The notes below the pieces were generated by a model, which saw only the letters and a list, made by a program, of their open reading frames with translations, searched no databases and was not told the DNA's origin. Source: Bacteroidota bacterium (GTDB lineage: Bacteria; Bacteroidota; Bacteroidia; Bacteroidales; VadinHA17). Taken from it: a DNA stretch of 64,000 nucleotides. A program made the translations under genes and the position numbers. This document shows positions 17,110 through 54,472 of this stretch, piece by piece. The stretch's first letter is position 1. Every line of letters starts with the position of its first letter. The stretch lies in NCBI GenBank assembly GCA_029547705.1, contig JAKPOU010000001.1, forward strand, positions 71,437 to 135,436, read 5' to 3'.

Positions 17110-18786
17110 TCAATGTTCTATCCGGAATCTTTTTTCATTCCGGTAACTTCTTATGTTCTGATTCTTCTTCAGATAGTCAATAAGCGCATCAGCCGTTGTA
17201 ATATAGTGTGACTGACCCGGATCCCTGTGCTGATACTGGTAAACCTGTGTCATATAGCTGTTCATGGCAACCGTATAGGTTTTGTCCATGTCAAGCGGGG
17301 TGCCGTCTCCGGTAAAGAGAGTCACATCCGCCAGTTCACCCCCGGTTCCGGGCTTAAGTACCGTGAATATACCTGAAGAAAAGACCGGCTGCCTGTCATC
17401 CATAGGATATGCGGCAAGCATCAGGGAATGGATCTCTTTCCCTGTAAGACGGGTAACTATCAGTTCATTTCCAAATGGATCAAGCTGATACACATCCTTA
17501 GCCCTGACAGGGCCCTTTTCCAGACTGCGTATCCTAACACCTCCCGGATTTACAAGGGCAATATCGGCTCCGGCAATATCCTTCTGGGCATCAGCCATCA
17601 GGTATCCCAGCTCCTCTTTCGATGAAAAATCATCGCTTGCCCATGCAATCACTTCCTTCAGCAGGGGAATGTCATTGTATTCATCCACCATCGCACGTAT
17701 GGCGGGACTCTCATTTCCGGCCTTCCTGATTCTTATCAGCTGCATGCTCCTGGTAAGGCTGCCATCACTTCTCAGGGATAACCTGATCAGAGTGCCATAG
17801 TTAAGCTTGTGATCTGCCTGGGTTATCATGATCCCGTTATGGATCTGTTCCTTTTCAACCCTGGTATGCGAGTGGCCTCCTATTATCAGGTCTATCGCCG
17901 GCGGCATGATTTCAGCAAGTTTCACATCGTTTTCAAATCCGATATGAGTCAGTGCTATAAAAATATCACTCCTGTCCTTCAGCCAGAGGTAATCACGGGC
18001 AGCCTCAAAAGGGGAACGGAAAGTAAAACCCTTCAGCTTCCCGGGATGCGAATCGGGAATGCCGTTGCGGTTAATCTGTACAAGTCCGAGAAATGCCAGC
18101 TTCAATCCGTTTGGAAGAGTGATGATTTTCCAGGGTTTGATCTTAAAATCATCCGGATTACCGGCAGACATGTTTGCACAGATAAAATCAAAATCAGCCT
18201 TTCTGATCAGATTGCTGAAGCCTTCAGGGCTCGTATCGAATTCATGGTTTCCCACTGCACTCAGGTTAAAGCCGGTTGCATTCATCAGCTCAATCATGGG
18301 CAGGCCTCTTTCGGGATACTGATCGTTCACCGGATTTCCCGTCTGGTTATCCCCGGCTCCTACCAGCAGCATGTGCGGGTAGATCTTTCGCAGACTGTCG
18401 GTAATATATGCCAGTTTCGGAAAATTATCCAGGGTTGCATGCATGTCATTAACAGCGAAAATGACAGCCTCCCTTTCAGTCCGGCCGCCGGTAAGGACCT
18501 TCCCGGAAGAGCCGCAGGCGGAAAAAAGTCCTGCCAGAAGCAGCAACAGAAAAAGCTGTGTCAGGGATTTCCGCCTGCCGCCCGCAGTCATGATAAAAAG
18601 ACTGTTCCCGCTGCTCAGCCCACCCTCAGCATCCACCCTGTTTCCATAGCCGTCCTCAACCCGGGGAAAGGGCCGGGGAACCTTCTTCCCCTGCTGTGAA
18701 TAGTATTTCAGAACCGCATCCCTTACTTTCGCACCGTAATGAAGTTCAAGCAAAATATTGTTTACTCCGATTTTCATCTTTATCAT
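17110..18786 (-). CDS. Bifunctional metallophosphatase/5'-nucleotidase lipoprotein with an extra N-terminal domain
   Basis: NDMH, GDN, GNHEFD, THIG, GGHSH, NPGGVR. Internal lipobox LFSAC near residue 90. Confidence 0.88.
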   Translation of the reverse strand: MIKMKIGVNNILLELHYGAKVRDAVLKYYSQQGKKVPRPFPRVEDGYGNRVDAEGGLSSGNSLFIMTAGGRRKSLTQLFLLLLLAGLFSACGSSGKVLTGGRTEREAVIFAVNDMHATLDNFPKLAYITDSLRKIYPHMLLVGAGDNQTGNPVNDQYPERGLPMIELMNATGFNLSAVGNHEFDTSPEGFSNLIRKADFDFICANMSAGNPDDFKIKPWKIITLPNGLKLAFLGLVQINRNGIPDSHPGKLKGFTFRSPFEAARDYLWLKDRSDIFIALTHIGFENDVKLAEIMPPAIDLIIGGHSHTRVEKEQIHNGIMITQADHKLNYGTLIRLSLRSDGSLTRSMQLIRIRKAGNESPAIRAMVDEYNDIPLLKEVIAWASDDFSSKEELGYLMADAQKDIAGADIALVNPGGVRIRSLEKGPVRAKDVYQLDPFGNELIVTRLTGKEIHSLMLAAYPMDDRQPVFSSGIFTVLKPGTGGELADVTLFTGDGTPLDMDKTYTVAMNSYMTQVYQYQHRDPGQSHYITTADALIDYLKKNQNIRSYRNEKRFRIEH

Positions 18787-18972
18787 ATTTTACCCTGCAA
18801 AAAAACTTTAAATATTTTTAATTTGAAAAAAAAAGGCTGTGAAGAGGCATGCTGAAAAGGAAGTTAATGTATTTCCCCGGAATGGTCATGAATAATTAAA
18901 AATTTGTTAAAAAGCTCATCATATCAGCGTTTGTGGACAGGATATCAAATATTAATTATACTTTTACAAATC

Positions 18973-19000
18973 GTATTACTAATCTACGGATTGGTAATAC
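18973..19000. promoter_or_regulatory. NikR-type operator palindrome
   Basis: GTATTAC-N14-GTAATAC, i.e. GTATTA-N16-TAATAC, the same 6-16-6 geometry as E. coli GTATGA-N16-TCATAC. Confidence 0.65.
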
Positions 19001-19031
19001 TTTTACGGCTGCCTTAAGCTATTAATAAACC

Positions 19032-19094
19032 ATGAAAGCAAAAAAGTTTAATTGTCCTGCTCCTGTGAGGGGACAAACTGGAATTACAATCTGA
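19032..19094 (+). CDS. Putative 20-aa upstream ORF MKAKKFNCPAPVRGQTGITI
   Basis: AT-rich start context. Stop lies 1 nt before the ATG of the binding-protein gene. Confidence 0.35.
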   Translation: MKAKKFNCPAPVRGQTGITI

Positions 19095-19095
19095 A

Positions 19096-20283
19096 ATGAA
19101 CAGATCTAAACATACAGGCCTGGTTTTTTCCCTCATATTATTGTTTTATCTGAGCAGTTGCGGGAATCCTGGCGGCTCTCAGGAAAGGCAGGATCAGATC
19201 AGGGACGGGGACAGGCACATCGCTGCAGGCAGCAGGCTGTCTTCGGACAGCCGGGGACAGCCAGCAGGGAATAACGGATCTGTGGCGGTAAGGGATATAC
19301 TTGGCAGGGAGGTTTTCATTCCTTCACGCATAAACCGTGTCGCCGGTCTGCGTGCCGGAGCTTTACGGCTGCTGGTATATATGGACCTTGCCGACAGGAT
19401 TGCCGGAGTGGAACAGAATGAGAAACGGGGCAGCACGCCCTACATGAAAGCACATCCCGAACTGGCCCAGCTGCCTTCACTGGGTCCGTCAATGGGCGGT
19501 GATGCCGAACTGATACTGAAATCAAAACCTGACCTGATTTTCCTTACCTATACCACAGCAGGTGATGCTGATGCCCTGCAGCAGAAAACAGGCATTCCGG
19601 TAATTGCCCTCGAATGTACTGAATTCGGCACGGCAAGGGATACCCTTTTTGCTTCCCTTAAACTCATAGGAAAGATCATGGACAGAAGCGGCAGGGCCGA
19701 TACACTGATAAACTACATTGAAAATTCAATTGCTGAGCTGAACAGACGGTCATCCGGAACAGCGGAATCAGAAAAACCACTCGTTTACATAGGCGGAGTC
19801 GGCTATTCGGGTTCATATGGCATCAATTCAACCCAGCCCTTCTTCCCTCCTTTCATGTTCCTGAATGCCCGCAGTCCGGCATCAGAGATTGACAAAAGAC
19901 TCATATCCCACGTGAAGGGCACTCATATTGATACGGAACAACTGATGCTCTGGAATCCGGATATTCTTTTCATTGATGAATCAGGACTTAACCTGGTAAA
20001 GCAGGATCTCCGAAGGGGAACAGCATTATTCAACAGGCTTAAGGCCGTAGAGGAAAACAGGATGTACACCCTTCTGCCCTATAACAATTATGCAACCAAC
20101 TATGAAATGGTACTGGCAAATGCATGGTTTGCCGGAAAAATCCTCTATCCCGAAAAATTCAGTGACATTGATGCCGATGAAAAAACGAAGGAAGTATACC
20201 GCATATTCCTGGGCAGGGATATATCGGATGAAATAAAACCCTCTTCATCAGCTTTCAGGAATATCAGTAAAAACGAACTTTGA
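19096..20283 (+). CDS. Metal/siderophore/cobalamin ABC substrate-binding lipoprotein (helical-backbone class)
   Basis: Lipobox LSSC, RDILGREV, E.IL...PDLI, L.AVEENR.Y. Confidence 0.88.
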   Translation: MNRSKHTGLVFSLILLFYLSSCGNPGGSQERQDQIRDGDRHIAAGSRLSSDSRGQPAGNNGSVAVRDILGREVFIPSRINRVAGLRAGALRLLVYMDLADRIAGVEQNEKRGSTPYMKAHPELAQLPSLGPSMGGDAELILKSKPDLIFLTYTTAGDADALQQKTGIPVIALECTEFGTARDTLFASLKLIGKIMDRSGRADTLINYIENSIAELNRRSSGTAESEKPLVYIGGVGYSGSYGINSTQPFFPPFMFLNARSPASEIDKRLISHVKGTHIDTEQLMLWNPDILFIDESGLNLVKQDLRRGTALFNRLKAVEENRMYTLLPYNNYATNYEMVLANAWFAGKILYPEKFSDIDADEKTKEVYRIFLGRDISDEIKPSSSAFRNISKNEL

Positions 20284-21353
20284 TGTCAGAACAGGTTTTA
20301 AGCCAATATTACAATTTCAGGAAGAAGAGAATACTTTTCATACTCTTTCTTCTGCTGCTGCTGTTCATTATTATCATATACTCGCTTTTTTCCGGATCGG
20401 CCGACATAGGTTTAAGGGATATATACAGCCTTATAACGGGAACGGGACAGGCAGTTTCACGTCAGATCATCTACAACATACGCCTGCCGCGAATTGCCGG
20501 AGCCTTTCTGGCAGGTATGGCTCTTTCCGTGTCAGGAGCCGTAATTCAGAGCATTCTCAGGAATCCACTGGCTTCCCCCTTCACTCTGGGTATTTCCGGA
20601 GCATCCGCATTCGGCGCTGCCTTTGCAATAATTGTCCTCGGAGCCGGCAGCAGCTACGCCGGATCCAACGATATGGCCATAATCAATAATCCCTATGTGG
20701 TGACGGTTTCCGCATTCCTGTGGAGCCTCTGCAGTGTTGCCGTCATCATCGTGCTCTCAAAGTATAAGGGTGCAACACCTGAAATAATCATATTGTCAGG
20801 GATAATTATTTCTTCACTGTTTGGTGCAGGCATATCGGCAATGCAGTATTTTTCCGATAATATCCAGCTTGCATCAATTGTATTCTGGACTTTCGGCGAC
20901 ATTGGCAGAGCATCATGGAACAACTGTCTGATAATTGCAGTCGTAGTGAGTCTTGTCATGGTTTTTTTTATAAGCCAGAGCTGGAACTATAAAGCACTTC
21001 AGTCGGGAGATGAATATGCAAGAAGTCTGGGAGTCAATGTTTCAAGAGTCCGCCTGACAGGACTGGTTGTGGCTTCACTGGTGACAGCAGTTGTTGTTTC
21101 ATTTTACGGAATCATTGCCTTTGTGGGACTGGTAGTTCCTCATATTGTACGCAGGATCATCGGAGGCGACGAACAGTTCCTGATACCTGCATCGGCAATA
21201 GGGGGAGGAACATTTTTGCTGTTTTCCGACACTCTTGCAAGAACAATCATATCCCCGGTCATCCTTCCTGTGGGAATTTTAACATCTTTCGCAGGTGCAC
21301 CCCTGTTTCTGTTTCTGCTTATTAAAGGAATGGGAAAGGATTACTGGACCTGA
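20283..21353 (+). CDS. FecCD/BtuC family ABC permease
   Basis: IRLPR, ILRNPLASPFTLGISGAS, GDEYARSLGV, FVGLVVPH. Confidence 0.92.
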   Translation: MSEQVLSQYYNFRKKRILFILFLLLLLFIIIIYSLFSGSADIGLRDIYSLITGTGQAVSRQIIYNIRLPRIAGAFLAGMALSVSGAVIQSILRNPLASPFTLGISGASAFGAAFAIIVLGAGSSYAGSNDMAIINNPYVVTVSAFLWSLCSVAVIIVLSKYKGATPEIIILSGIIISSLFGAGISAMQYFSDNIQLASIVFWTFGDIGRASWNNCLIIAVVVSLVMVFFISQSWNYKALQSGDEYARSLGVNVSRVRLTGLVVASLVTAVVVSFYGIIAFVGLVVPHIVRRIIGGDEQFLIPASAIGGGTFLLFSDTLARTIISPVILPVGILTSFAGAPLFLFLLIKGMGKDYWT

Positions 21354-21475: not shown

Positions 21476-22234
21476 ATGAAAATCACCATTCAGGATATTG
21501 AATTCAGTTATAATGGCTTCCCTGCACTCGAAAATGTGAACAACAGAATTGAGAAAGGTGATTTTGTGGCACTGGTCGGTCCGAACGGATCAGGTAAAAG
21601 TACCCTTATCAAGTGTATGAACGGAATACTGAAAGTCAGCAAAGGCACTGTACTGATAGATGACAGGGCAATATCCATGTTCAGTCCCAATGAACTGGCC
21701 AGGGAGATTGCCTATGTTCCCCAGAGTGAAAACAGGAAGGCAGTACTTAAGGTATTTGACATTGTCCTTCTTGGAAGGAAACCCTATATCAACTGGAAAC
21801 CGGCTGAACACGACCTCAGGGTAACATCGGAAATACTGAATACTCTCAATCTTGATCATCTGGCAATGAGGGATTTCAATAAACTGAGCGGCGGACAGCA
21901 ACAGATAGTGTACATAGCCAGGGCTCTGGCCCAGGAACCGGATATCCTGCTTCTTGACGAACCAATTGCAAATCTTGATATCAGACACCAGATTGAAGTG
22001 CTGAACCTGCTGAAAAAGCTTTCCGCCAGAGGCATCACCATTGTCATCGCCCTGCATGACATAAACATGGCTGTACGCTATGCCTCGGGAATAATGATGC
22101 TCAGGGACGGAAAGGTATTTGCCAGCGGCGGCAGGGAAATAATAACAAAACAGAATATTGAAAATCTTTATGATATCAGGGTAAAGATTATCAGAAATGA
22201 CAATGATACATTTATCCTGCCGGAAGGATTATAA
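21476..22234 (+). CDS. ABC transporter ATP-binding protein (FecE/BtuD-like)
   Basis: GPNGSGKS, LSGGQQQ, LLDEP, LHD. Confidence 0.93.
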   Translation: MKITIQDIEFSYNGFPALENVNNRIEKGDFVALVGPNGSGKSTLIKCMNGILKVSKGTVLIDDRAISMFSPNELAREIAYVPQSENRKAVLKVFDIVLLGRKPYINWKPAEHDLRVTSEILNTLNLDHLAMRDFNKLSGGQQQIVYIARALAQEPDILLLDEPIANLDIRHQIEVLNLLKKLSARGITIVIALHDINMAVRYASGIMMLRDGKVFASGGREIITKQNIENLYDIRVKIIRNDNDTFILPEGL

Positions 22235-22253
22235 AATAAAACACTGTTCAGAT

Positions 22254-23360
22254 ATGAAAACATACACTGTCAGACCAGTAGGCCTGGTACGCAACGGATT
22301 CGACAATCCCGCCGATTACAACACGATAAAGGAACACCCCAGCTCCGTTATAGTGCATGATGAATACAGTGAGGCCCTGCTGAACATTGATGAGTGTGAA
22401 TATCTGGATATTGTTTTCTGGTTTCATAAATCGGAACAGGGAACCCTGTCCGGAAAAACCCATTCAGGTGCCGTGAGGGGTGTGTTTGCCTCCCGCAGTC
22501 CCAGGAGGCCCAATCTGATAGGGATTACAACAGTAAAACTGATTGAGCGGAAAAATAACGAACTCATTGTGGAAGGCCTTGATGCCATCAATAACACACC
22601 TGTAATTGATATAAAAAACTGTGACACCTCATTGTTTGCTTCAGTCACCGAATCAAACCCCGTTCATAATTCGATTCTCAAATCTGATCCGAGAATTGAA
22701 ATCAGAAACAACATAGCAAAGGGCGAAACAGATATATTGCTTATAAAGGCTGCACAGATGCACGGTCATTTCTGTCCGGGACTTGCCATGGGAGTCATGG
22801 CAGCCGTCCATGCCATGAGGGAGTTGCAGGCTGATTCCGACGGCATGGAGAACCTTCTGGCTATAACCGAAACAAACAATTGTTTTTCTGACGGAGTGCA
22901 GTTTGTCACAGGCTGCTCATTCGGCAATAATTCCCTGATCTACAAGGATCTGGGAAAAACAGCATTTACGCTTGCCGGAAGGGACGGTAAAGGAATAAGG
23001 ATCTGTTCGCGCCATGAATCAAGGGATGTGATAGAAGAGGCATTCCCGGATTTCCGGAAATACTACCGGTCAGTCATTGCTGAGCAGAAACGTGATCCTG
23101 ACATGGTTGCCGCATATAAGAAGTCTGCCCTGGAAAGGGCTTTCGGCACCCTGGATCTTCCTTTCGGAAGTTTATTCACTGTTAAGCGGGTTCATACCGC
23201 AATACCGGATTATGCCGGAATTGATGAGAGCGTGGTATGCCGGCTCTGCAATGAAAGTGTAATGAGATCGAGAACAACGGAAGAGGGTGATTCCTTTACC
23301 TGTTTCAGCTGCAGCGGCCGGGATCATGCCATTCTTGACGGAAACGGCATTCATCTGTAA
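22254..23360 (+). CDS. TsaA/YaeB-like SAM-binding domain fused to FmdE domain with C-terminal zinc finger
   Basis: GVFASRSPRRPNLIG...GLDAINNTPVIDIK, then HGHFCPG, ETNNCFSDG, CRLC...CFSC. Confidence 0.85.
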   Translation: MKTYTVRPVGLVRNGFDNPADYNTIKEHPSSVIVHDEYSEALLNIDECEYLDIVFWFHKSEQGTLSGKTHSGAVRGVFASRSPRRPNLIGITTVKLIERKNNELIVEGLDAINNTPVIDIKNCDTSLFASVTESNPVHNSILKSDPRIEIRNNIAKGETDILLIKAAQMHGHFCPGLAMGVMAAVHAMRELQADSDGMENLLAITETNNCFSDGVQFVTGCSFGNNSLIYKDLGKTAFTLAGRDGKGIRICSRHESRDVIEEAFPDFRKYYRSVIAEQKRDPDMVAAYKKSALERAFGTLDLPFGSLFTVKRVHTAIPDYAGIDESVVCRLCNESVMRSRTTEEGDSFTCFSCSGRDHAILDGNGIHL

Positions 23361-23435
23361 ATGCTTCCGGATAGCCGGGAAGCCGTACTATTCATCTGCT
23401 TTCATATTTTCCTATCTTTGCGCTTTTCCCGGGAA

Positions 23436-24809
23436 ATGGACATAACTGAAAAGCTGACATACAGGAAAATCTTTCTTTTCTGGGGGCCGCTTGCGCTTAC
23501 CTGGCTGATGATGGCTTTTGAGCAGCCTTTCCTCATTGCCTTCATTGCCCGCCTGAATGAGGCAAAGTTCAATCTTGCCGCTTTTGGAATAGCCGGATCT
23601 TTTGCCATGATAATCGAGTCGCCGATAATCATGCTAATGAGTGCTTCCACTGCTCTTGTCAGGGGACGTCATTCATACAGGAAGCTGAAAAGATTCACTG
23701 ACCTGCTCAATGCCGGCATCACAGTCATTCAGCTGATCATCCTTATTCCGCCGGTTTTCAGCTTTATCGTAACCGGTCTGATGGGAATGCCTGAGGATAT
23801 CGCAAGACCGGCGCACACGGCACTTTTCATTTTTCTTCCCTGGGCTGCATCCATCGGTTACAGGAGGTTCTATCAGGGAATACTGATCAGGAATAATCTC
23901 ACCAGGAGGGTGACTTACGGAACTGTCGTGAGGCTGGTGGTGATAATGATAATGGGAGTAATCCTTTATTCAGCAGGCGTGAAAGGAGCCTATGTCGGTG
24001 CCGGGGCAATGTCACTGGCAGTTTTTCTTGAAGCAATTGCAACAAGAATGATGGTTTCCCGCACGCTGAAGACACTGCTTCAGATAGACGATACAGAAAA
24101 CCGCAATCTCCGCTTAAGGTCAGTTGCACGATTCTATTTCCCCCTTGCCCTTACTTCAATACTCTCGCTCGGAGTCCAGCCCTTTGTCACCTTTTTCCTC
24201 GGAAGAAGCCGTATGGCTGTGGAATCACTGGCCGTTCTGCCCGTGGTGAGCTCGCTGGTATTTATTTTCAGAAGCATGGGACTGTCATACCAGGAAGTGA
24301 ACATTGCACTGATAGGCAAGGAAAAGCAGAATTACAGGCTTCTGAAGAATTATGCCATTTTCCTTGGCCTGGTGGTGACGGTCCTGATTTCGGTACTGGC
24401 TTTCACTCCCCTGGCAAACCTGTGGTTCATAAATATATCGGGACTGAGTCAGGATCTTGCCGATATGTCATATCTTCCATTGAAAATCATGATACTCGTG
24501 CCTGCGCTTACAGTTCTTCTGAATTTCCAGAGGTCCTCGCTCATTATAAACGGTACCACACGCCCCATTTCCGTGGCAACGGCAATAGAGCTCGGCACCA
24601 TCATAATGACTTTGCTTGTCTGTACAGTTTTTCTGAACTTTATCGGGGTAGTCGCTGCAGCTATTGCCTTTATGACCGGCAGGATAATGTCAAACCTCTA
24701 CCTGATACAAAAACAGGTGTCAGCCGTGAGGGAATGGAATATTAAAGAACTGGTGACCGAAACGGTAAGACTGGACTCCGATGTCCATGACCATCGTCTC
24801 AGAAGATGA
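23436..24809 (+). CDS. MATE/MOP superfamily membrane protein
   Basis: About 12 TM segments with internal duplication. TATCTTTG promoter element at 23413-23420 supports ATG 23436. Confidence 0.75.
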   Translation: MDITEKLTYRKIFLFWGPLALTWLMMAFEQPFLIAFIARLNEAKFNLAAFGIAGSFAMIIESPIIMLMSASTALVRGRHSYRKLKRFTDLLNAGITVIQLIILIPPVFSFIVTGLMGMPEDIARPAHTALFIFLPWAASIGYRRFYQGILIRNNLTRRVTYGTVVRLVVIMIMGVILYSAGVKGAYVGAGAMSLAVFLEAIATRMMVSRTLKTLLQIDDTENRNLRLRSVARFYFPLALTSILSLGVQPFVTFFLGRSRMAVESLAVLPVVSSLVFIFRSMGLSYQEVNIALIGKEKQNYRLLKNYAIFLGLVVTVLISVLAFTPLANLWFINISGLSQDLADMSYLPLKIMILVPALTVLLNFQRSSLIINGTTRPISVATAIELGTIIMTLLVCTVFLNFIGVVAAAIAFMTGRIMSNLYLIQKQVSAVREWNIKELVTETVRLDSDVHDHRLRR

Positions 24810-43611: not shown

Positions 43612-44013
43612 TCAGTCCGTTTTGCTCATCAGGAGCTTCCCGTGCCTGATGCCCTTTATGGCTATCAGCTTGTCGGCCAGTTCAGTCAGCCTTTTAGCCT
43701 TACCCCTGACTGCAATGACCTCCAGGCATATATCCTGATTCAGGTAGAAATGCTGGGATGAAAGGATAACATCGAAATAGTTATGCCTGACATCATTTGA
43801 CTTTGTTATGATATCCTTCTTCTGCTGATCATAGATGATGATCACTGCGCCCGCAACAATATTGTTGCAATGCCATTTTTCCTCAACAATATTTTTTTCA
43901 ATAAGGTACCTCAGGCCCTGTGAACGGTTGGCGAAATTGTTATTTCCGACGTAATCATCCAGCTCCTTAAGCAGCTTTTCCTCAAGGCTTACACTAAATC
44001 GAACAACACTCAT
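43612..44013 (-). CDS. nikR: NikR family regulator (divergent metal site)
   Basis: RHH domain VRFSVSL...NRS, then an ACT domain ending GIRHGKL. H76, H87 and C95 equivalents present, H89 is Tyr. Confidence 0.88.
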   Translation of the reverse strand: MSVVRFSVSLEEKLLKELDDYVGNNNFANRSQGLRYLIEKNIVEEKWHCNNIVAGAVIIIYDQQKKDIITKSNDVRHNYFDVILSSQHFYLNQDICLEVIAVRGKAKRLTELADKLIAIKGIRHGKLLMSKTD

Positions 44014-44179
44014 CGTAACACAAATTTGATCCGGCGGGCATTATCTGCCGGGAGCCGGAATTATTTCCCTGATGCTTTCCGGCGGGCGGTCAGGAACCGT
44101 TATCATGCTTACGGCCTTTTCGCCGCCGGCCGGCCACTGTGTAAAGCAACGGTAAATTCCGCAGGTTCCCGTCCGGGTA

Positions 44180-45356: not shown

Positions 45357-45501
45357 GCTTTGCAGTCCGGGCCGGCCCCCTTTCATCAGGGATCTGCGGG
45401 CATGAATGTTTAATATCCCGTACATCCGGGATATGTTCATTGGCATGATAAGGCGGCCGAAGCCCCGTAACGCGGGAAGGATTAACAAATTCAACATAAT
45501 C

Positions 45502-45822
45502 ATGAAAGTAGCCATTACCAGTACAGGCAGTACATCTGACAGCAAACTTGATCCGAGATTCGGCAGATGTTCGTATTTCGTCATCTATGATACTGACACC
45601 CGGGAAATGGAATTCATCCGGAATCCCAACAAGGATGCGACGGAAGGTGCAGGTCCGGCATCGGTTCAGACAGTTGCTTCCCGGAATGTTAAAAAAATCA
45701 TATCAGGAGAATTCGGTACCAAGATAAGATCCCTGCTTGACAGTCTCGGAATAGAGATGACAGCAATCCGGGATCCTGAAAAAAGCATATCGGATATTGT
45801 AGAAATGCTCGGTCAGCAATAA
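45502..45822 (+). CDS. NifB/NifX family (orange protein/MTH1175-like)
   Basis: MKVAI, LDPRFGR, EGAG, SGEFG. Track start is 45406. Confidence 0.85.
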   Translation: MKVAITSTGSTSDSKLDPRFGRCSYFVIYDTDTREMEFIRNPNKDATEGAGPASVQTVASRNVKKIISGEFGTKIRSLLDSLGIEMTAIRDPEKSISDIVEMLGQQ

Positions 45823-45892
45823 AACATATACACATGAAGCGGCCATGATGGAATGCACCGGGAGGCCTTTGTCAAACAAAACCAAAACAAAG

Positions 45893-46231
45893 ATGAAAAA
45901 AAGAATAGCCGTCCCGCTTGAAAACGGGATATTATGTACACATTTCGGCCATTGCCAGCAATTTGCCATTATTGACACAAACGAAAATATTATTACAGAG
46001 GAACAACTTATTACCCCGCCTCCTCATGAACCGGGTCTTCTTCCGGGCTGGCTGGCAGAAAAGGGAGTTACGGATGTGATAGCGGGCGGAATGGGTCAAA
46101 GGGCCATTAATTTATTCAATCAGCAGAAAATAAACGTATTTGTCGGTGCACCGGTCAAAACGCCGAATGAGCTGGCGAGCGATCTGCTCAGCAATTCACT
46201 GAAAGCGGGAGCAAATTATTGTGATCACTGA
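45893..46231 (+). CDS. NifB/NifX family protein
   Basis: RIAVP, CTHFGHC, PPPHEPG, AGGMG, NYCDH. Confidence 0.88.
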   Translation: MKKRIAVPLENGILCTHFGHCQQFAIIDTNENIITEEQLITPPPHEPGLLPGWLAEKGVTDVIAGGMGQRAINLFNQQKINVFVGAPVKTPNELASDLLSNSLKAGANYCDH

Positions 46232-46266
46232 AATTACGCAGGCATTTTGACCTGGCCTGTACCATA

Positions 46267-47145
46267 ATGATAAAAATTGCTATTGCCAGCGGAAAAGGCG
46301 GAACGGGAAAAACCTTCGTTTCCACTAATATCTTTTATGCTCTGACCCGGGAGAATATCAGTTCCGTTCTAGCAGACTGTGATGCCGAAGCCCCGAATGT
46401 ACTTTCATTCTTCAGGACTGTCAGGAAGGAGACTCATGAGGTTGTACAGCACGTGCCGGTGATAGATGTCAGCAAGTGCACTTTCTGCGGAAAATGCCAT
46501 GAATACTGTAATTACAATGCCATATTCATCCTGCCGCCGTCAGGAATAATCAGTGTGATTGAAGATCTCTGCCACGGCTGCGGTGCCTGCAGTGTTGCCT
46601 GTGAATATGATGCCATTACCGAAAAACCTTTTCCGCTTGGAAATGTTAATATTTCTCTGTACAACAATTCACACCCTGTTATTGAGGCAAGAATGAATAC
46701 GGGTATTATGTCACCGGTTAGGGTTATCAAGGAAGCTCTCAGGCATATCAGGCATGAGGCTGAAATAGTGATCCTGGACTCTCCTCCGGGAACATCCTGT
46801 CCTTTTATCCAGACAGTCAGCCAGGCTGATTATGTAATACTTGTTACCGAACCGACTCCATTCGGCCTGAGTGACCTCAGACAGAGCGTGGAAACACTCA
46901 GAACAATGGACAGTAAGTTTGGTGTGATTATCAATAAAGCGGGAATGGGCAACAATGATGTCAGGGAATACCTGAAAAAAGAAGGCATAGACCTTTTACT
47001 GGAAATACCTTACAGCAGGGAAACTGCCGGACTGTATTCCGCCGGCAGGCTGCTTGCGGAAGCTGATGAATCCTTCGGGAAACAATTGCTGAATGTTACT
47101 GAATACATTACCGGGAAATATGGAAATAGCAATAGTCAGCGGTAA
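46267..47145 (+). CDS. MinD/ParA-type ATPase with 2x[4Fe-4S] insert
   Basis: SGKGGTGKT, DCDAEAPN, two CxxCxxCxxxC motifs, DSPPGTSC. Confidence 0.9.
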   Translation: MIKIAIASGKGGTGKTFVSTNIFYALTRENISSVLADCDAEAPNVLSFFRTVRKETHEVVQHVPVIDVSKCTFCGKCHEYCNYNAIFILPPSGIISVIEDLCHGCGACSVACEYDAITEKPFPLGNVNISLYNNSHPVIEARMNTGIMSPVRVIKEALRHIRHEAEIVILDSPPGTSCPFIQTVSQADYVILVTEPTPFGLSDLRQSVETLRTMDSKFGVIINKAGMGNNDVREYLKKEGIDLLLEIPYSRETAGLYSAGRLLAEADESFGKQLLNVTEYITGKYGNSNSQR

Positions 47146-47992
47146 GGGCGGTACGGGCAAATCCAGCATTAGTGCGGCGTTTGCAACGGCCGGCGGCCGG
47201 GTTGTCATTGCAGATTGTGACGTTGATGCGGCAAACCTTTATCTGATATTCAATCCTGTTGATGAAGAAGAAACTGTATATGTATCAGGTCATAATGCTG
47301 TCATAAACTATGACCTGTGCACTAACTGCGGTTTATGTACAGACTACTGCCGCTTTGATGCAATATCAGCCGGGGATGATGGAATTGTAACCATCTCCGG
47401 GATTTCCTGTGACGGCTGCTTTCTCTGTTCACGCGTTTGTCCCGAGAAAGCCATTGAGATGATCCCCAATGACAAAAGCAGAATGTACTCAGGATCTTTC
47501 CGAAACGGCAGAATGGTTTACGGAAAGCTTGCCCCCGGGGAAGAGAATTCAGGGAAGCTGGTAAACATGGTACGCGAAAAGGCAAAGGAAACAGCCCGTG
47601 AAAATAATATCGGCACAATCATCCTGGATGGTCCCCCGGGAATAGGCTGCCCTGCAATCTCAACCATAACCGGTGCCGACAAGGTTGTCATCGTAACGGA
47701 ACCGACCATATCCGGATTGTCTGACCTGAAAAGGATGGCAGAGGTTACAGGGAAATTCAGCCTGCAGGCATTGGCCATCATCAACAAGTATGACCTCAAT
47801 ACTGAAATAAGCGGTCAGATTGAAGAGTGGTGCAGTCAGAACGGAATCCGTGTTATCGGAAAACTTCCCTTTGACAGCCGCATAACGGAAGCAATGATAC
47901 AGTCAAAAAGCATTACGGAATATAATCCGCAACTTGATATCAGTAATAAATTGAAAGAAATATGGCAACAAATCCTCAATCAAAACCAATGA
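47120..47992 (+). CDS. Second MinD/ParA-type ATPase with 2x[4Fe-4S] insert
   Basis: SGKGGTGKS, DCDVDAAN, two ferredoxin motifs, DGPPGIGCP. Confidence 0.9.
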   Translation: MEIAIVSGKGGTGKSSISAAFATAGGRVVIADCDVDAANLYLIFNPVDEEETVYVSGHNAVINYDLCTNCGLCTDYCRFDAISAGDDGIVTISGISCDGCFLCSRVCPEKAIEMIPNDKSRMYSGSFRNGRMVYGKLAPGEENSGKLVNMVREKAKETARENNIGTIILDGPPGIGCPAISTITGADKVVIVTEPTISGLSDLKRMAEVTGKFSLQALAIINKYDLNTEISGQIEEWCSQNGIRVIGKLPFDSRITEAMIQSKSITEYNPQLDISNKLKEIWQQILNQNQ

Positions 47993-48807
47993 ATGATCTT
48001 TTTGAAAAAATTCCCATGGAAGGGATCAGAAACATTATTGTTGTGGCATCCGGCAAGGGCGGAGTCGGAAAATCAACCGTAGCCGTCAACCTTGCAGTCA
48101 CCCTTGCCAGAAACGGTCTCAGTACCGCATTGTTCGACGCGGACATATTCGGTCCGTCAGTTCCCAGAATGTTCGGACTGGAAGATGTCAGGCCGGAAGT
48201 ATCAGCAGTCGGGGATAAGGAGATTTTCTTCCCGGTAAAGAAATTCGGGGTAAACATCATTTCAATAGGCTTTTTTATTGATCAGAGCCAGTCACTTATA
48301 TGGCGCGGACCCATGGCGGGAAAAGCAGTCACACAGCTTCTGGGTGATACCCAGTGGGGTGAAACCGATTACCTGATAATTGATTTTCCTCCGGGAACCA
48401 GTGATATCCAGCTTACTACCGTTCAGAAACTGAATCTTTCCGGAGCAGTCATTGTAACCACTCCGCAGGAAATATCACTCAACGATGCCCGTAAAGCAGC
48501 GTCCATGTTCAATAATCCCGATCTCAATGTTCCCATTCTCGGGGTTATTGAAAACATGTCGTGGTTTACACCTGAAAAGCATCCGGATGAAGTATATTAT
48601 ATTTTCGGAAAAGGCGGCGGACTAAGGCTGGCAAAGGAATTCAACACAGAACTGCTCGGACAGATACCCCTGGTTATGGAAGTGGGTGAAGCAGCGGATC
48701 AGGGACTGACTGTATTCAGTCAGAAAAACAAGCCGGTTGTAAAGGCTTTTGAACAGATAGCGGAATCAATAATTGCAAAAACCGAAAAAAGGGAAGCAGG
48801 GAAATAA
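47989..48807 (+). CDS. mrp: Mrp/NBP35 (ApbC) Fe-S carrier ATPase
   Basis: SGKGGVGKS, DADIFGPS, WRGPM, D.PPGTSD, ENMS. Confidence 0.92.
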   Translation: MNDLFEKIPMEGIRNIIVVASGKGGVGKSTVAVNLAVTLARNGLSTALFDADIFGPSVPRMFGLEDVRPEVSAVGDKEIFFPVKKFGVNIISIGFFIDQSQSLIWRGPMAGKAVTQLLGDTQWGETDYLIIDFPPGTSDIQLTTVQKLNLSGAVIVTTPQEISLNDARKAASMFNNPDLNVPILGVIENMSWFTPEKHPDEVYYIFGKGGGLRLAKEFNTELLGQIPLVMEVGEAADQGLTVFSQKNKPVVKAFEQIAESIIAKTEKREAGK

Positions 48808-50242: not shown

Positions 50243-51595
50243 ATGACTAAATATATTATAAATCTGTCCATTCTTTTATTTGTGATATCCATTTTTGATC
50301 TGGGCGCTCAGCGGCAAAACGTGGTTTATGTGAGCGAACAGGACTCACTCTTAAAACTAAAAGAAGAATTAAAGCTTCTGAAGACGGAATATATCGACAT
50401 CGCTTCAAGGTTTGATTCCCTTATTCAGGCAATTGACCGGAAGGAAAAAGCCGCTCAGGCTGAGAATGATTTACAGAAGCTGCTTGATGAGGCCAACCGT
50501 ATGGCCGCGCTGGAAAAGGAAAAGGAGGAGGATCTGGCGGTAAAATTCCAGAGCGGGGTAAGGCAGCAGCAGGCACTTAATCCGAATATCAGCCTCGGCG
50601 GGGATTTTTTCGGGGCCATCAGTACATCAGGTCATGAATTCATTTCCGAACCCGGTGAAATATCCTATGGAAACAACGGATTCTTCCTGCGTGAAATAGA
50701 AGTGGGCATTGAAGCTCCTCTCGATCCTTTTACCCGGGGGAAATCATTTATTTCCATTACCAGTGATGCGATAAACATTGAGGAGGCCTATATGGAATGG
50801 CTGAACCTTCCTCTGAACATGAATCTTAAAATCGGTATATTCTATACCGAATACGGTCCCATCAACAGGTATCATGATCATGCACTGCCCCAGTTTGACA
50901 GGCCGAGGGCCCTGGTAAACCTTTTCAGCAACCAGGGACTCGGCGGAACAGGTGTTTCAACGACTTTTATGCTGCCAAGGCTCCTTTTTTCTGATGCAAG
51001 CTCCCTGGACCTGAGTGTTCAGAAGGGTACTCCCACGGAAGATATTTTCAGTTTCGGCAATAAGGGCTTCCTGTATTCGGGGCAGTTTAAAAATTATTAT
51101 GATATAAGTCAGAACAGCTATTTTGAAGTCAGACTAAGCAATGTGACAGGCAGAAATCCTGTGCCGGGAAACAACCTGTCCAGCGTCGGAAGCCTTGGCA
51201 TGTCATATAAATGGGTTCCGGCCGGCCGTGAGAAATACCGGACCCTTGACTGGAAATCCGAATTTTTATACAGTTACCGCAGGGAACATACCGGCAGTAT
51301 CAGAAGCATTGGATTTTATTCCACCGTTCAGAACAAGCTGAATGCAAGATTTACAGCCGGCGCCAGAATAGGCTACTCCCAGCTGCCCTATGACAATAAG
51401 CAGTATGAATGGGATTATACCGTGAATCTTGACTTCTGGCAGAGCGAATTTGTTTTTGCAAGAATTCAGTATCAGTATAACCGGCGAAACCTGACGGATT
51501 TTCAGCCAGATCCGCCTGGCATGATGCCGAATGACCACTCGGTTATTCTGCAGGTATGCTGGGCAATGGGCCCCCATAAACATGAAGCTTATTAA
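50243..51595 (+). CDS. Putative outer-membrane beta-barrel associated with metal uptake
   Basis: Signal peptide, coiled-coil N-region, LNPNIS.GGDF, alternating beta strands, C-terminal GPHKHEAY. Confidence 0.7.
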   Translation: MTKYIINLSILLFVISIFDLGAQRQNVVYVSEQDSLLKLKEELKLLKTEYIDIASRFDSLIQAIDRKEKAAQAENDLQKLLDEANRMAALEKEKEEDLAVKFQSGVRQQQALNPNISLGGDFFGAISTSGHEFISEPGEISYGNNGFFLREIEVGIEAPLDPFTRGKSFISITSDAINIEEAYMEWLNLPLNMNLKIGIFYTEYGPINRYHDHALPQFDRPRALVNLFSNQGLGGTGVSTTFMLPRLLFSDASSLDLSVQKGTPTEDIFSFGNKGFLYSGQFKNYYDISQNSYFEVRLSNVTGRNPVPGNNLSSVGSLGMSYKWVPAGREKYRTLDWKSEFLYSYRREHTGSIRSIGFYSTVQNKLNARFTAGARIGYSQLPYDNKQYEWDYTVNLDFWQSEFVFARIQYQYNRRNLTDFQPDPPGMMPNDHSVILQVCWAMGPHKHEAY

Positions 51596-51613
51596 CGATC
51601 TTATTTTAATAAT

Positions 51614-52714
51614 ATGAAAAGAAATATAAAGAGTTTTTCAAGAATGAATAAAGGGATCCTGATACTGACGGCCGTACTCTTGTTTCAGGGAATTCATTTC
51701 AGCGTAACGGCCCAGCAAAGGGCTCAGGTCAGATACAGAGGCGGCGGATCCGACAGACCGCTCAACATTATCTGTTCTTTTTCCGACTTTGCAACCATTA
51801 CTGAATACATTGCCGGCAACAGGGCCCAGGTAAGCTATATTGCAAGCGGTGAACGGGATCCTCATTTTGTTCCTCCCAAGCCCAGTTATGCGGTCATGCT
51901 TTCAAGGGCTGACATGTGGATTGCCACAGGTATGGATCTTGAAATGTGGTCAGCTACTCTTCTTGACAAGGCACATAACCCCAGGATTATGGACGGTGAA
52001 CCGGGATTTGTTGCTGCTGCCCAGGGAGTCAATGTTGTTGAAAAAGTTGAATTTGCAAGCCGTTCTGAAGGAGATATTCACCTTATGGGGAATCCCCATA
52101 TTACCACCGGTCCGCTTAACTGGAAAGTGATAGCCCAAAATATCACAATAGGCCTCATCAAGGTTGACCCTGCCAATGCAGCCCTGTATCAGAAAAACAG
52201 GGATGCTTTTATTGACAGGGTCGACAGGGCGCTTTTCGGTAACAGGCTTGTTGATCTTTTCGGTGGTCCCACTCTGTCGAAAATGCTGGAAAACCAGACT
52301 TTATTTACCTTTCTGGAAAGACCCTATGAAGGAGGAAAGCTTTCGGATCAGCTGGGAGGATGGCTGAAAAAAGCCATGCCCTTCAGGGGTATGCGCATTG
52401 TAACCTATCATAAGAACTGGTCATATTTTACCAATACATTCGGGCTTGAAGTGATCGGATACATTGAACCGAAACCGGGTATTCCGCCTTCAGCCAAACA
52501 TGTACAGACAATGATCGATATGATAAAAACACAAAATATCAAGGTGATGATGATTGCCACCTATTTTGAGAAAAAAACCGCACAGATGATTGAGGCAAAA
52601 ACAGGTATCAGGGCTGTTTACCTTCCGCTTCACGTAAATGCGGTACCGGGTGTGGATGATAATTTCAAGCTGATTGACTATCTGATCGATCAGATAAATG
52701 CCAGTATAATCTGA
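51614..52714 (+). CDS. TroA/ZnuA-type Zn/Mn ABC substrate-binding protein
   Basis: DPHF, GNPHI, YHKNW.YF, EPKPGIPPS. Confidence 0.88.
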   Translation: MKRNIKSFSRMNKGILILTAVLLFQGIHFSVTAQQRAQVRYRGGGSDRPLNIICSFSDFATITEYIAGNRAQVSYIASGERDPHFVPPKPSYAVMLSRADMWIATGMDLEMWSATLLDKAHNPRIMDGEPGFVAAAQGVNVVEKVEFASRSEGDIHLMGNPHITTGPLNWKVIAQNITIGLIKVDPANAALYQKNRDAFIDRVDRALFGNRLVDLFGGPTLSKMLENQTLFTFLERPYEGGKLSDQLGGWLKKAMPFRGMRIVTYHKNWSYFTNTFGLEVIGYIEPKPGIPPSAKHVQTMIDMIKTQNIKVMMIATYFEKKTAQMIEAKTGIRAVYLPLHVNAVPGVDDNFKLIDYLIDQINASII

Positions 52715-52764
52715 ACGGAAATTCACCTGCCTGACAAAGCCTTAACAAATAAATACTATCATTC

Positions 52765-53610
52765 ATGTTGGATAACATCCTTTTTCTTTCAGCTCCCATT
52801 ACGGTAAGCATCCTGATGGCCGGAATACTTGCCTATTTCGGAAATCACATCCTGACCAGAGGAATTATTTTCATTGATATAGCAGTTGCCCAGATAGCAG
52901 CACTGGGCACAATGATAGGCCTTCTTCTGGGCCTGGCTGAGGAATCATCAGGTGTACAGCTTATTTCATATGCATTTACAATAGTTGTAATTGCATTGTT
53001 CGCCCTGACAAAATTCCGCGATCAGGTCATTCCCCAGGAAGCAATTATAGGAATAATATATTGTATAGGATTGGGTCTTGCCATGCTCCTGGCTGAAAGG
53101 ATTCCGGGCGGTGCGAATTTCATTTCAAAAACCATTACCGGCAACCTGCTGTGGGTCACCTGGAGTCAGGTTCTCAACTGTTTTCTTCTGTTTCTGGCAG
53201 TTGCCATTGTGCATCTTTTTTTCCGGAAGCATTTTATAGCTATTTCCGATACAAAGAAAGGATTGCCTTACAGCCTGTGGAAAACCAGGTCATATGAACT
53301 GATATTCTACATAACCTTTGGAATTGTCATTGTGAAAGCCGTGCCTGTCGGAGGCATTTTCATGGTATTCATACTTCTCATTGCTCCGGCAGCAGCAGCA
53401 ACACTGTTTACACAATCGTGGAAAAAGAGATTTATCTGGAGCTGGATAATAGGTATCGCGGGTTCCGTTTCCGGAATGTACGCTTCATACAAGCTGAATA
53501 TATCAAATGCTCCAGCAATAGTAAGCCTGCTCAGCCTGACGGTTTTCATACTGGCATTCATCAAACTCGCAGCAGGCAGATTCAAAACAGACAATATTAA
53601 AAAGCAATAA
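52765..53610 (+). CDS. ABC-3 family metal permease
   Basis: FGNHILTRGIIFIDIAVAQIAALG, EAIIG, many TM segments. Confidence 0.85.
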   Translation: MLDNILFLSAPITVSILMAGILAYFGNHILTRGIIFIDIAVAQIAALGTMIGLLLGLAEESSGVQLISYAFTIVVIALFALTKFRDQVIPQEAIIGIIYCIGLGLAMLLAERIPGGANFISKTITGNLLWVTWSQVLNCFLLFLAVAIVHLFFRKHFIAISDTKKGLPYSLWKTRSYELIFYITFGIVIVKAVPVGGIFMVFILLIAPAAAATLFTQSWKKRFIWSWIIGIAGSVSGMYASYKLNISNAPAIVSLLSLTVFILAFIKLAAGRFKTDNIKKQ

Positions 53611-53614
53611 CCCC

Positions 53615-54472
53615 ATGGCTGAAGCACTTGTATTTATGTCAACGCCTTTTGCCGGCTCTCTTCTGCTGATAATAATAATGGTATATTTCGGAATTCACGT
53701 CATAGAAAGAGAAATTATTTTTATCGATATTGCACTTGCCCAGATTGCCGCTCTCGGAAGTGCCGTATCACTCGTTATTGCCACTGTTTCCCCTGATGCC
53801 TCCCATGACGTTCATGATCATGACTCAAGAACATTCCTGGCATATTTTTTCTGCCTTATAGCAGCGGGGATATTTACCCTTCTCAAAGACAGGCGGCTGA
53901 ACATACCTCTCGAAGCTGTTATCGGGATAGCCTACGCAATGGCAACAACCAGTGCGGTAATTATTCTCGACAAGGGCGCGGGAAGCGATGTACACATTCA
54001 TGATATGCTTGCGGGAACAATTCTCTGGATTTCCTGGGGTCAGGTTCTCAGACTATTTCTTGTAATACTGCCTATAGCCCTGTTGCATTATTTTTTCAGG
54101 GATAAATTCAAATCCGTCACTCTTGCATATCAGAACAAGGAAAGCGATATTAAAAATCCAAAACTATGGGATTTCATTTTTTATCTGACTTTCGGAATCA
54201 TTATAGTGGAAGCAGTTAGCATAGGAGGTATAGTAACAATCTTCGCATTCCTTATCATACCTGCAGCGATATCTGCCCTTTTCAGTACCCGCTGGACACA
54301 GAGAATCCTTATCGGTCTGCTGACCGGGGGCATTGCCGTAATCTTCGGACTCTACCTTTCATGGGTACTGGATGTTCCATGTTCCCCTACCATCATACTC
54401 TTCCTTGCGGTTTTGCTGCTTCTGGCAATCATTTTAAAAAGTATTATGAAAATCCGGAGGACAGCAGAATAA
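53615..54472 (+). CDS. ABC-3 family metal permease (paralog)
   Basis: FGIHVIEREIIFIDIALAQIAALG, EAVIG, and a His-rich loop HDVHDHD. Confidence 0.85.
   Translation: MAEALVFMSTPFAGSLLLIIIMVYFGIHVIEREIIFIDIALAQIAALGSAVSLVIATVSPDASHDVHDHDSRTFLAYFFCLIAAGIFTLLKDRRLNIPLEAVIGIAYAMATTSAVIILDKGAGSDVHIHDMLAGTILWISWGQVLRLFLVILPIALLHYFFRDKFKSVTLAYQNKESDIKNPKLWDFIFYLTFGIIIVEAVSIGGIVTIFAFLIIPAAISALFSTRWTQRILIGLLTGGIAVIFGLYLSWVLDVPCSPTIILFLAVLLLLAIILKSIMKIRRTAE

Follow-up and report, generated by a model that had tools for sequence, protein, structure and literature searches.

Why should an operon that automatic annotation describes as an iron, heme or B12 importer be preceded by a palindrome with the geometry of a NikR operator, and what does such an operon import? 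The question arises at positions 18973-19000 of the window, by which we mean the whole stretch of 64,000 nucleotides of a Bacteroidales genome analysed here (draft assembly of 3.78 Mb in 70 contigs, 45% G+C). The palindrome, GTATTACTAATCTACGGATTGGTAATAC, has the layout GTATTAC-TAATC-TACG-GATTG-GTAATAC and lies in the 309-nt gap between a divergently oriented 5'-nucleotidase gene (17110-18786, minus strand) and a plus-strand operon. The original prediction, which had named this site as a NikR operator, gave both its sequence and its coordinates exactly. The features referred to below are the following, where the box denotes the predicted operator.

18959-18966, plus strand: first copy of TACTTTTA, a Bacteroidota -7-like element (TAnnTTTG with G changed to A) of putative promoter function, kept in the closest relatives (loci L058 and L059)
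18973-19000, no strand assigned: predicted NikR operator, GTATTAC-N14-GTAATAC, from the sequence, a repeat finder, the genome scan and conservation in L058 and L059
18998-19005, plus strand: second copy of TACTTTTA, overlapping the right arm of the box (direct repeat D3), present in L059 and absent from L058
19032-19094, plus strand: remnant of a deleted TonB-dependent receptor gene, 20 codons (MKAKKFNCPAPVRGQTGITI, then the stop codon), from blastn against L058 and L059 and the aligned ends
19096-20283, plus strand: class-III (Peripla_BP_2) substrate-binding lipoprotein (SBP) with the lipobox LSSC, from a domain search; best PDB relative 2ETV
20280-21353, plus strand: FecCD/BtuC-type permease, from profile searches
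21476-22234, plus strand: ABC ATPase, from profile searches
22197-23360, plus strand: fusion of TrmO_N (YaeB-like) and FmdE domains with a Cys4 zinc ribbon; its gene closes the conserved core of the orthologous operons
23361-24809, plus strand: MatE-like membrane protein, whose gene starts where the fusion gene stops and is retained in the closest relatives alone
43612-44013, minus strand: nikR, 133 aa, with His89Tyr, from NCBIfam equivalog NF003381 and an alignment of orthologs
44015-44021, minus strand: single half-site GTGTTAC, the proximal one, directly next to the nikR start codon; relatives also have the distal half, which is missing here

The arms of the palindrome, as delimited by a repeat finder (18973-18984 and 18989-19000), are 12 nt long, are complementary at 11 of 12 positions (92%) and leave 4 nt between them; the claim that the symmetry extends into the spacer thus holds, with TAATC and GATTG pairing at 4 of 5 positions. 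A genome scan had been proposed with the original prediction, and the exact pattern GTATTAC-N14-GTAATAC has a single occurrence in the window, which is also the only one in the 3.78-Mb genome; arithmetic from base composition gives a chance expectation of about 0.02 per genome for these 14 bases. Inverted repeats of the form 7-N14-7 are per se common, a few being expected per 64 kb, and the two-mismatch version of the pattern is not enriched genome-wide (14 matches, against 26 with a reversed control). As the shape alone is not rare, the significance of the palindrome derives from its sequence identity and from the position of the strict matches. For the latter we used a strict box rule, consisting of two GT[AG][AT][CT]AC half-sites (GTRWYAC) separated by 13 or 14 nt. 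Only two sites in the genome conform to it, 18973-19000 itself and C40:52313-52340 on another contig. Allowing one mismatch added four further non-coding matches (C6:140025, C21:22690, C27:184178 and C69:29420), and allowing two produced hundreds, i.e. noise. Other metal-related clusters in the window, at 45406-48807 and 50243-54472, comprise NifX-like proteins with MinD/Mrp-type ATPases and an ABC-3 locus with two permeases; no NikR-type box was found at these two clusters under the one-mismatch rule.

The original prediction held that the transporter would be annotated as an iron or cobalamin system, and profile libraries do name iron, heme and B12: permease and ATPase score highest against B12, heme and siderophore systems. 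None of these identities is reached at the level of the models. The BtuC models gave 197-205 bits against cut-offs of 334-461 and BtuD 158 against 281; for the SBP, Fec, siderophore and heme models gave at most 43 bits where the cut-offs are at least 298. Likewise, matches of the TonB-dependent receptor to iron, heme and siderophore profiles stayed under the cut-offs and yielded no equivalog-level assignment. Within the 64-kb window neither a riboswitch, and hence no cobalamin riboswitch, nor any member of another Rfam family was found, and tRNA genes are likewise absent from it. The architecture agrees with that of Niu-type importers in having a Peripla_BP_2 SBP, an FecCD permease and an ABC ATPase. 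In a PDB sequence search the SBP matched 2ETV best (E = 1.4e-80), followed by the molybdate-binding MolA, and NiuB/CeuE (4LS3) was absent from its matches at E <= 1e-3. The fusion protein carries HGHFCPG in its FmdE part and a C-terminal Cys4 zinc ribbon of the form CRLC...CFSC. As annotated, its gene begins 38 nt inside the ATPase gene, and the true start may instead be the ATG at 22254.

The operator reading draws its support from comparative genomics. A scan of species genomes gave ten orthologous loci in Bacteroidales MAGs (L058-L067; SBP 48-78% identical; 100,247 bp in total). Under the fixed rule with up to one mismatch these contain 14 boxes. Ten of them, one per locus, lie 30-64 nt before the ATG of the receptor gene, which is the first gene of the operon (10/10); three abut the start codon of a nikR located directly upstream of the operon (L061-L063); and the last precedes the L064 operon as an additional box. 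The rest of the 100,247 bp contains no box. The boxes of L058 and L059, 36 and 31 nt before the first ATG, occupy the position orthologous to 18973-19000. Furthermore, nikR is present in all ten operon-bearing genomes, as compared with 20 of 61 genomes in the sample of relatives.

In all ten loci the SBP gene is preceded by a gene that is absent here. Its product has about 680 aa (515 aa in L065). In L059 and L065, both of which were domain-scanned, Plug and barrel domains mark it as a TonB-dependent receptor; those of the other loci are 58-64% identical to a receptor encoded elsewhere in our genome, on contig C40. This gene order implies an ancestral operon headed by the receptor. From the orthologous loci, the ancestral operon is predicted to consist of TonB-dependent receptor, class-III SBP, FecCD permease, ATPase and TrmO_N-FmdE fusion, the MatE gene having been added in the two closest relatives.

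A search for the SBP in 60 relatives returned only paralogs of 41-42% identity and a truncated match in another family, which were not accepted as orthologs. Three full-length paralogs, located behind an Mrp-like gene, lacking a box and belonging to genomes without nikR, were used as negative comparators. Seven residues (R86, M133, Y152, E176, N257, H272 and N331) are invariant in the 11 SBPs of boxed operons and different in these paralogs; by this comparison they are candidate specificity residues, nothing more. In three genomes of the same genus that lack nikR (G013, G015 and G019; loci L095-L097 with L012-L014), a paralogous class-III ABC operon is accompanied by a TrmO_N-only protein of 148-150 aa, and in L013 and L014 an Mrp-like ATPase gene precedes the operon. 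The TrmO_N domain thus accompanies this importer lineage also where NikR control is absent.

The regulator itself is encoded 24.6 kb from the operon. The original prediction had placed a nikR at 43612-44013, and coordinates and identity both stand, its product passing the NCBIfam NikR equivalog NF003381 with 126.5 bits (cut-off 105); we add that it is encoded on the minus strand. In the genus and in neighbouring families, most nikR orthologs have a 28-bp GTnnnAC-N14-GTnnnAC box that ends 1-2 nt before the nikR start codon and forms a perfect palindrome in G037 and G040. In eight genomes of the same genus nikR is followed by a second box and then by a gene for a TonB-dependent receptor. In L025 a CbiM/NikM-type gene that scores above the CbiM cut-off comes after nikR or its box, and other relatives have in this place a transporter gene in which the HX4DH signature of NiCoT proteins was recognised by eye. 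The TrmO_N-FmdE fusion of G059 adjoins a box and a NiCoT-type gene. In two Prolixibacteraceae nikR precedes larE-larC, with LarE of L077 above its cut-off. Altogether, the conservation of the box, the co-occurrence and adjacency of nikR and the presence of the same box on nickel genes imply that the operon belongs to a nickel regulon.

We therefore consider it probable that the 28-bp palindrome is the NikR operator of an operon that imports nickel, which would probably be taken up as a chelate. The orthologous promoters, the co-occurrence with nikR and the agreement with a published NikR signal, all of them comparative evidence, favour the operator interpretation of the original prediction. 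The "iron/B12-type" transporter most likely imports nickel or a nickel chelate, an assignment of substrate drawn entirely from its regulation. The regulation as such would be ordinary, but the transporter lineage is new to the literature that we searched. Full-text searches returned neither NikR sites nor such an operon in Bacteroidetes; the main catalogue of NikR regulons, Rodionov et al. 2006, could list a similar one.

Two further properties of the NikR proteins and their sites deserve mention. Many of the Bacteroidales boxes (L060-L066 and the nikR loci L017-L037) are not inverted repeats but direct (GTAACAC-N13-GTAACAC) or everted ones. Each half-site has a frame, GTnnnAC, that is a palindrome too, and a two-fold symmetric NikR tetramer would have to read direct repeats as well. 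Separately, the NikR proteins of the two Prolixibacteraceae loci, L077 and L078, have the motif QRFML, without His87 and His89, and YE in place of the Gln-His at the His76 position; their boxes are kept and larE and larC follow directly. These proteins may form a separate subgroup of NikR, distinct in its metal site and devoted to the synthesis of the nickel-pincer cofactor.

The unit regulated by the box has changed in our genome. The ABC operon of the original prediction is real, but it was at first headed by the gene of a TonB-dependent receptor, which has been deleted here. In blastn alignments the match of window positions 18646-19066 to L059 ends roughly 11 codons inside the receptor gene of that locus, and positions 19071-19455 match L059 again from the last receptor codons into the SBP gene, about 2 kb being missing here. 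What is left joins roughly the first 8 and the last 12 receptor codons in frame, with about 660 codons removed relative to L058 and L059. The tail of this remnant has diverged from the ...LINGRIAFTF terminus of the relatives and has lost the final Phe. The remnant ATG (19032) lies 31 nt from the box, as in L059.

Outside the window, C40:52243-54602 (locus L091) encodes a TonB-dependent receptor that stands alone. The protein has 748 aa, shares 62% identity with the operon receptor of L059 and carries an extra N-terminal segment of about 95 residues. The strict box C40:52313-52340 is located 15 nt upstream of this receptor, and a one-mismatch box is found 70 bp upstream of C40:52313, the two sequences of the C40 pair being GTAACACGAATAAGAGAATTGTTAATAC and GTAACACGATTTATAAAAAAAGTAATAC. 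Together with the box at 18973, the three best boxes of the genome thus all belong to one transport system. Eight relatives have one such receptor each, encoded in the operon and 58-64% identical to the C40 protein, which argues that the latter is a stand-alone homolog and not a recently transposed copy. It most likely substitutes for the deleted operon receptor.

Loss of the receptor gene in frame, leaving a diverged remnant, also fits a different account, in which the palindrome is a NikR operator but the system is a relic: a NikR blind to nickel would leave the operon constitutively on or repressed while the regulon erodes. The regulator has the motif QHFYL instead of QHFHL, i.e. His89 is replaced by Tyr and the other three ligands of the His76/His87/His89/Cys95 set are kept. 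His89 is one of the four ligands of the square-planar nickel site (PMC7055735). Nearly all orthologs, including those of L070 and L071 with 91-92% identity, have QHFHL, and the substitution is unique to this genome among about 35 Bacteroidales NikR orthologs. In addition, the distal half-site at nikR, present in L071, is lost here, so that the autoregulatory box is half gone. Nickel sensing by the Tyr89 protein may therefore be impaired or altered, as far as its sequence indicates. On the other hand, nikR and each of the five operon genes have intact frames of full length, the operator is a more perfect palindrome here than in the relatives, and a homologous receptor with boxes of its own is available on C40. 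The lar genes described below speak for a continuing need for nickel, and the Tyr codon could be a consensus error of the draft genome. On balance we regard a relic system as unlikely and retain the reading of a NikR operator on a nickel import operon.

The genome has a use for nickel. LarC, LarE and LarB score above the NCBIfam cut-offs and are encoded in a cluster (larC, larE, larB) at C21:59454-62380, and a LarA-like gene lies elsewhere, at C27:387372-387821; this implies that the genome makes the nickel-pincer cofactor and needs nickel. There is no box before larC. A six-frame search of the genome with signature motifs, as regular expressions that are weaker than profiles, found no [NiFe]-hydrogenase large subunit, HypB, HypC, HypD, HypF, UreG, urease alpha subunit or Ni-SOD. 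Moreover, tblastn with the CbiM/NikM and NiCoT-like proteins of the relatives detected no homolog in this genome. The boxed system may therefore be its main regulated nickel route.

NikR could also control the operon while the substrate is a chelate of cobalt or another metal rather than nickel. NiuBDE carries cobalt and bismuth as well (PMC5140060). The preference of the permease and ATPase for B12, heme and siderophore profiles points in the same direction, and the altered nickel sites, here and in the Prolixibacteraceae NikRs with QRFML, leave room for a different selectivity. To our knowledge, however, the NikR proteins that have been characterised respond physiologically to nickel. Also against another metal, relatives bear the same box on nikR and on typical nickel transporters, nikR adjoins lar genes, and the cobalamin riboswitch is absent from the window. 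These observations make a substrate other than nickel quite unlikely.

A third possibility is that the palindrome acts as RNA and does not need NikR, its 12-bp hairpin and the following UUUU serving as a leader attenuator, a terminator or a stabilising 5' stem. Indeed, the RNA fold of the site (18968-19012) reaches -15.1 kcal/mol with z = -6.0, which no shuffled sequence equalled, and UUUU follows the stem. However, the boxes of L058, L059, L063 and L066 and the C40 box of our genome show no comparable fold (0 to -4.2 kcal/mol, z >= -1.2) and still keep GTRWYAC half-sites at fixed spacing. Many boxes are direct repeats, which cannot pair as RNA, and a terminator scan found nothing. Absence of the fold from the boxes of the relatives implies that the conserved feature is a DNA site and not an RNA structure. 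An RNA element is accordingly very unlikely, and the perfect dyad symmetry best accounts for the hairpin, which could have a minor terminator-like effect in this genome. Finally, although inverted repeats of this shape are expected by chance in any 64 kb and the two-mismatch pattern is not enriched, a fortuitous repeat or the site of an unrelated transcription factor is scarcely conceivable for a motif that shares 12 of 14 positions with the published NikR signal (PMC545781), recurs at 10/10 orthologous promoters and otherwise, in 100 kb, only at nikR promoters, co-occurs with nikR and adjoins it in L061-L063.

For the nickel operator that we favour, the surrounding promoter elements suggest a mode of action. 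The original prediction had the palindrome overlap a -7-like element. This is correct for the copy of TACTTTTA at 18998-19005, which overlaps the right arm, but of the two copies only the upstream one, at 18959-18966, is common to L058 and L059, and this conserved copy lies outside the box, 6 nt upstream of it. It overlaps a sigma-70-like TATACT hexamer that is part of a promoter-like match, TGGACA-17-TATACT, spanning 18934-18962. From the position of the upstream copy we infer that transcription would start close to where the box begins on its left side.

With the box 6 nt after the -7-like element it would cover roughly +1 to +28. At sufficient nickel a Ni-NikR tetramer would set its two ribbon-helix-helix dimers on the two GTAWTAC half-sites, the centres of which are 21 bp apart, and in this bound state would prevent initiation or promoter clearance; under nickel scarcity the operon would be expressed. 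The substrate would then cross the outer membrane through the TonB-dependent receptor and be passed by the lipoprotein SBP to the FecCD-type permease and its ATPase, and the TrmO_N-FmdE protein would perform a cytoplasmic step.

These considerations can be extended, tentatively, to an undescribed nickel pathway of anaerobic Bacteroidales that would feed Lar enzymes and not hydrogenase or urease. It is possible, if on present evidence doubtful, that receptor and class-III ABC transporter import a nickel chelate, that the protein with TrmO_N, FmdE and zinc-ribbon domains releases nickel or hands it on, and that the MatE-like protein may export the chelator. If this reading is true, the TrmO_N domain would be tied to the importer lineage rather than to tRNA methylation.

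Whatever the fate of that extension, the operator re-assigns to nickel an operon that automatic annotation takes for an iron, heme or B12 importer. It points to the nickel supply of anaerobic Bacteroidales without NikABCDE and, in this genome, also without detectable homologs of the NikMNQO and NiCoT genes of the relatives, and it connects the uptake of nickel with enzymes of the nickel-pincer (LarA) type. For FmdE and the archaeal-type TrmO_N/YaeB barrel, two domains about which little is understood, it supplies a clean regulon context. In addition, the inverted, everted and direct arrangements of one near-palindromic half-site offer natural variation that is useful for studying DNA recognition by a NikR tetramer.

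Compared with known systems, the operon resembles BtuBFCD and the FecABCDE or siderophore importers in its TonB-dependent receptor, class-III SBP, FecCD permease and ATPase and in its sub-threshold profile matches; it differs from them in that no equivalog cut-off is reached and that a NikR box takes the place of a riboswitch or Fur. The operator itself is closest in form to the NikR signal of delta-proteobacteria, GTGTTAC-[N13/14]-GTAACAC, for which a reversed half-site orientation and the variant GTaTTAC are on record (Rodionov et al. 2004, Genome Biol 5:R90, PMC545781). Both have the half-site GTRTTAC, a spacer of 13 or 14 nt, a length of 27-28 bp and a location upstream of nickel transporters (PMC545781). 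In contrast to that signal, both halves of our box are the A/T variant (GTATTAC and GTAATAC), the host belongs to Bacteroidales, many of the related boxes are direct repeats, and the target is an operon of TonB-dependent receptor and class-III ABC type and not nikMNQO.

In E. coli NikR, a ribbon-helix-helix tetramer with a His76/His87/His89/Cys95 nickel site, binds the nikABCDE operator GTATGA-N16-TCATAC (PMC7055735). The NikR-like geometry of the original prediction is borne out by this site, a 28-bp dyad with 10 of 12 bases shared, and the expected logic, repression of a nickel ABC importer, would be the same. Unlike the present system, the E. coli importer is of the Opp/NikA class and not of class III, and nikR is adjacent to it, whereas here nikR is 24.6 kb away and encodes Tyr89.

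Helicobacter NikR represses the TonB-dependent nickel receptors FrpB4, FecA3 and NikH together with NiuBDE, a transporter with class-III SBP and FecDE-type components that was long annotated as iron transport (PMC5140060). The substrate of NiuBDE (CeuE/FecDE) is a nickel chelate, Ni-(L-His)2, and H. mustelae pairs NikH with CeuE/FecDE (PMC5140060). Our SBP has no close relative in NiuB, as judged by the absence of 4LS3 from its PDB matches, the ancestral operon here unites the receptor and the TrmO_N-FmdE fusion in a single unit, and the operator consensus differs from that of H. pylori NikR sites. By our analysis, Helicobacter NikR with NiuBDE and FrpB4/FecA3 is nevertheless the closest known system, sharing the Peripla_BP_2 SBP, the FecCD permease, the ATPase, the TonB-dependent receptor and the control by NikR, which is predicted here.
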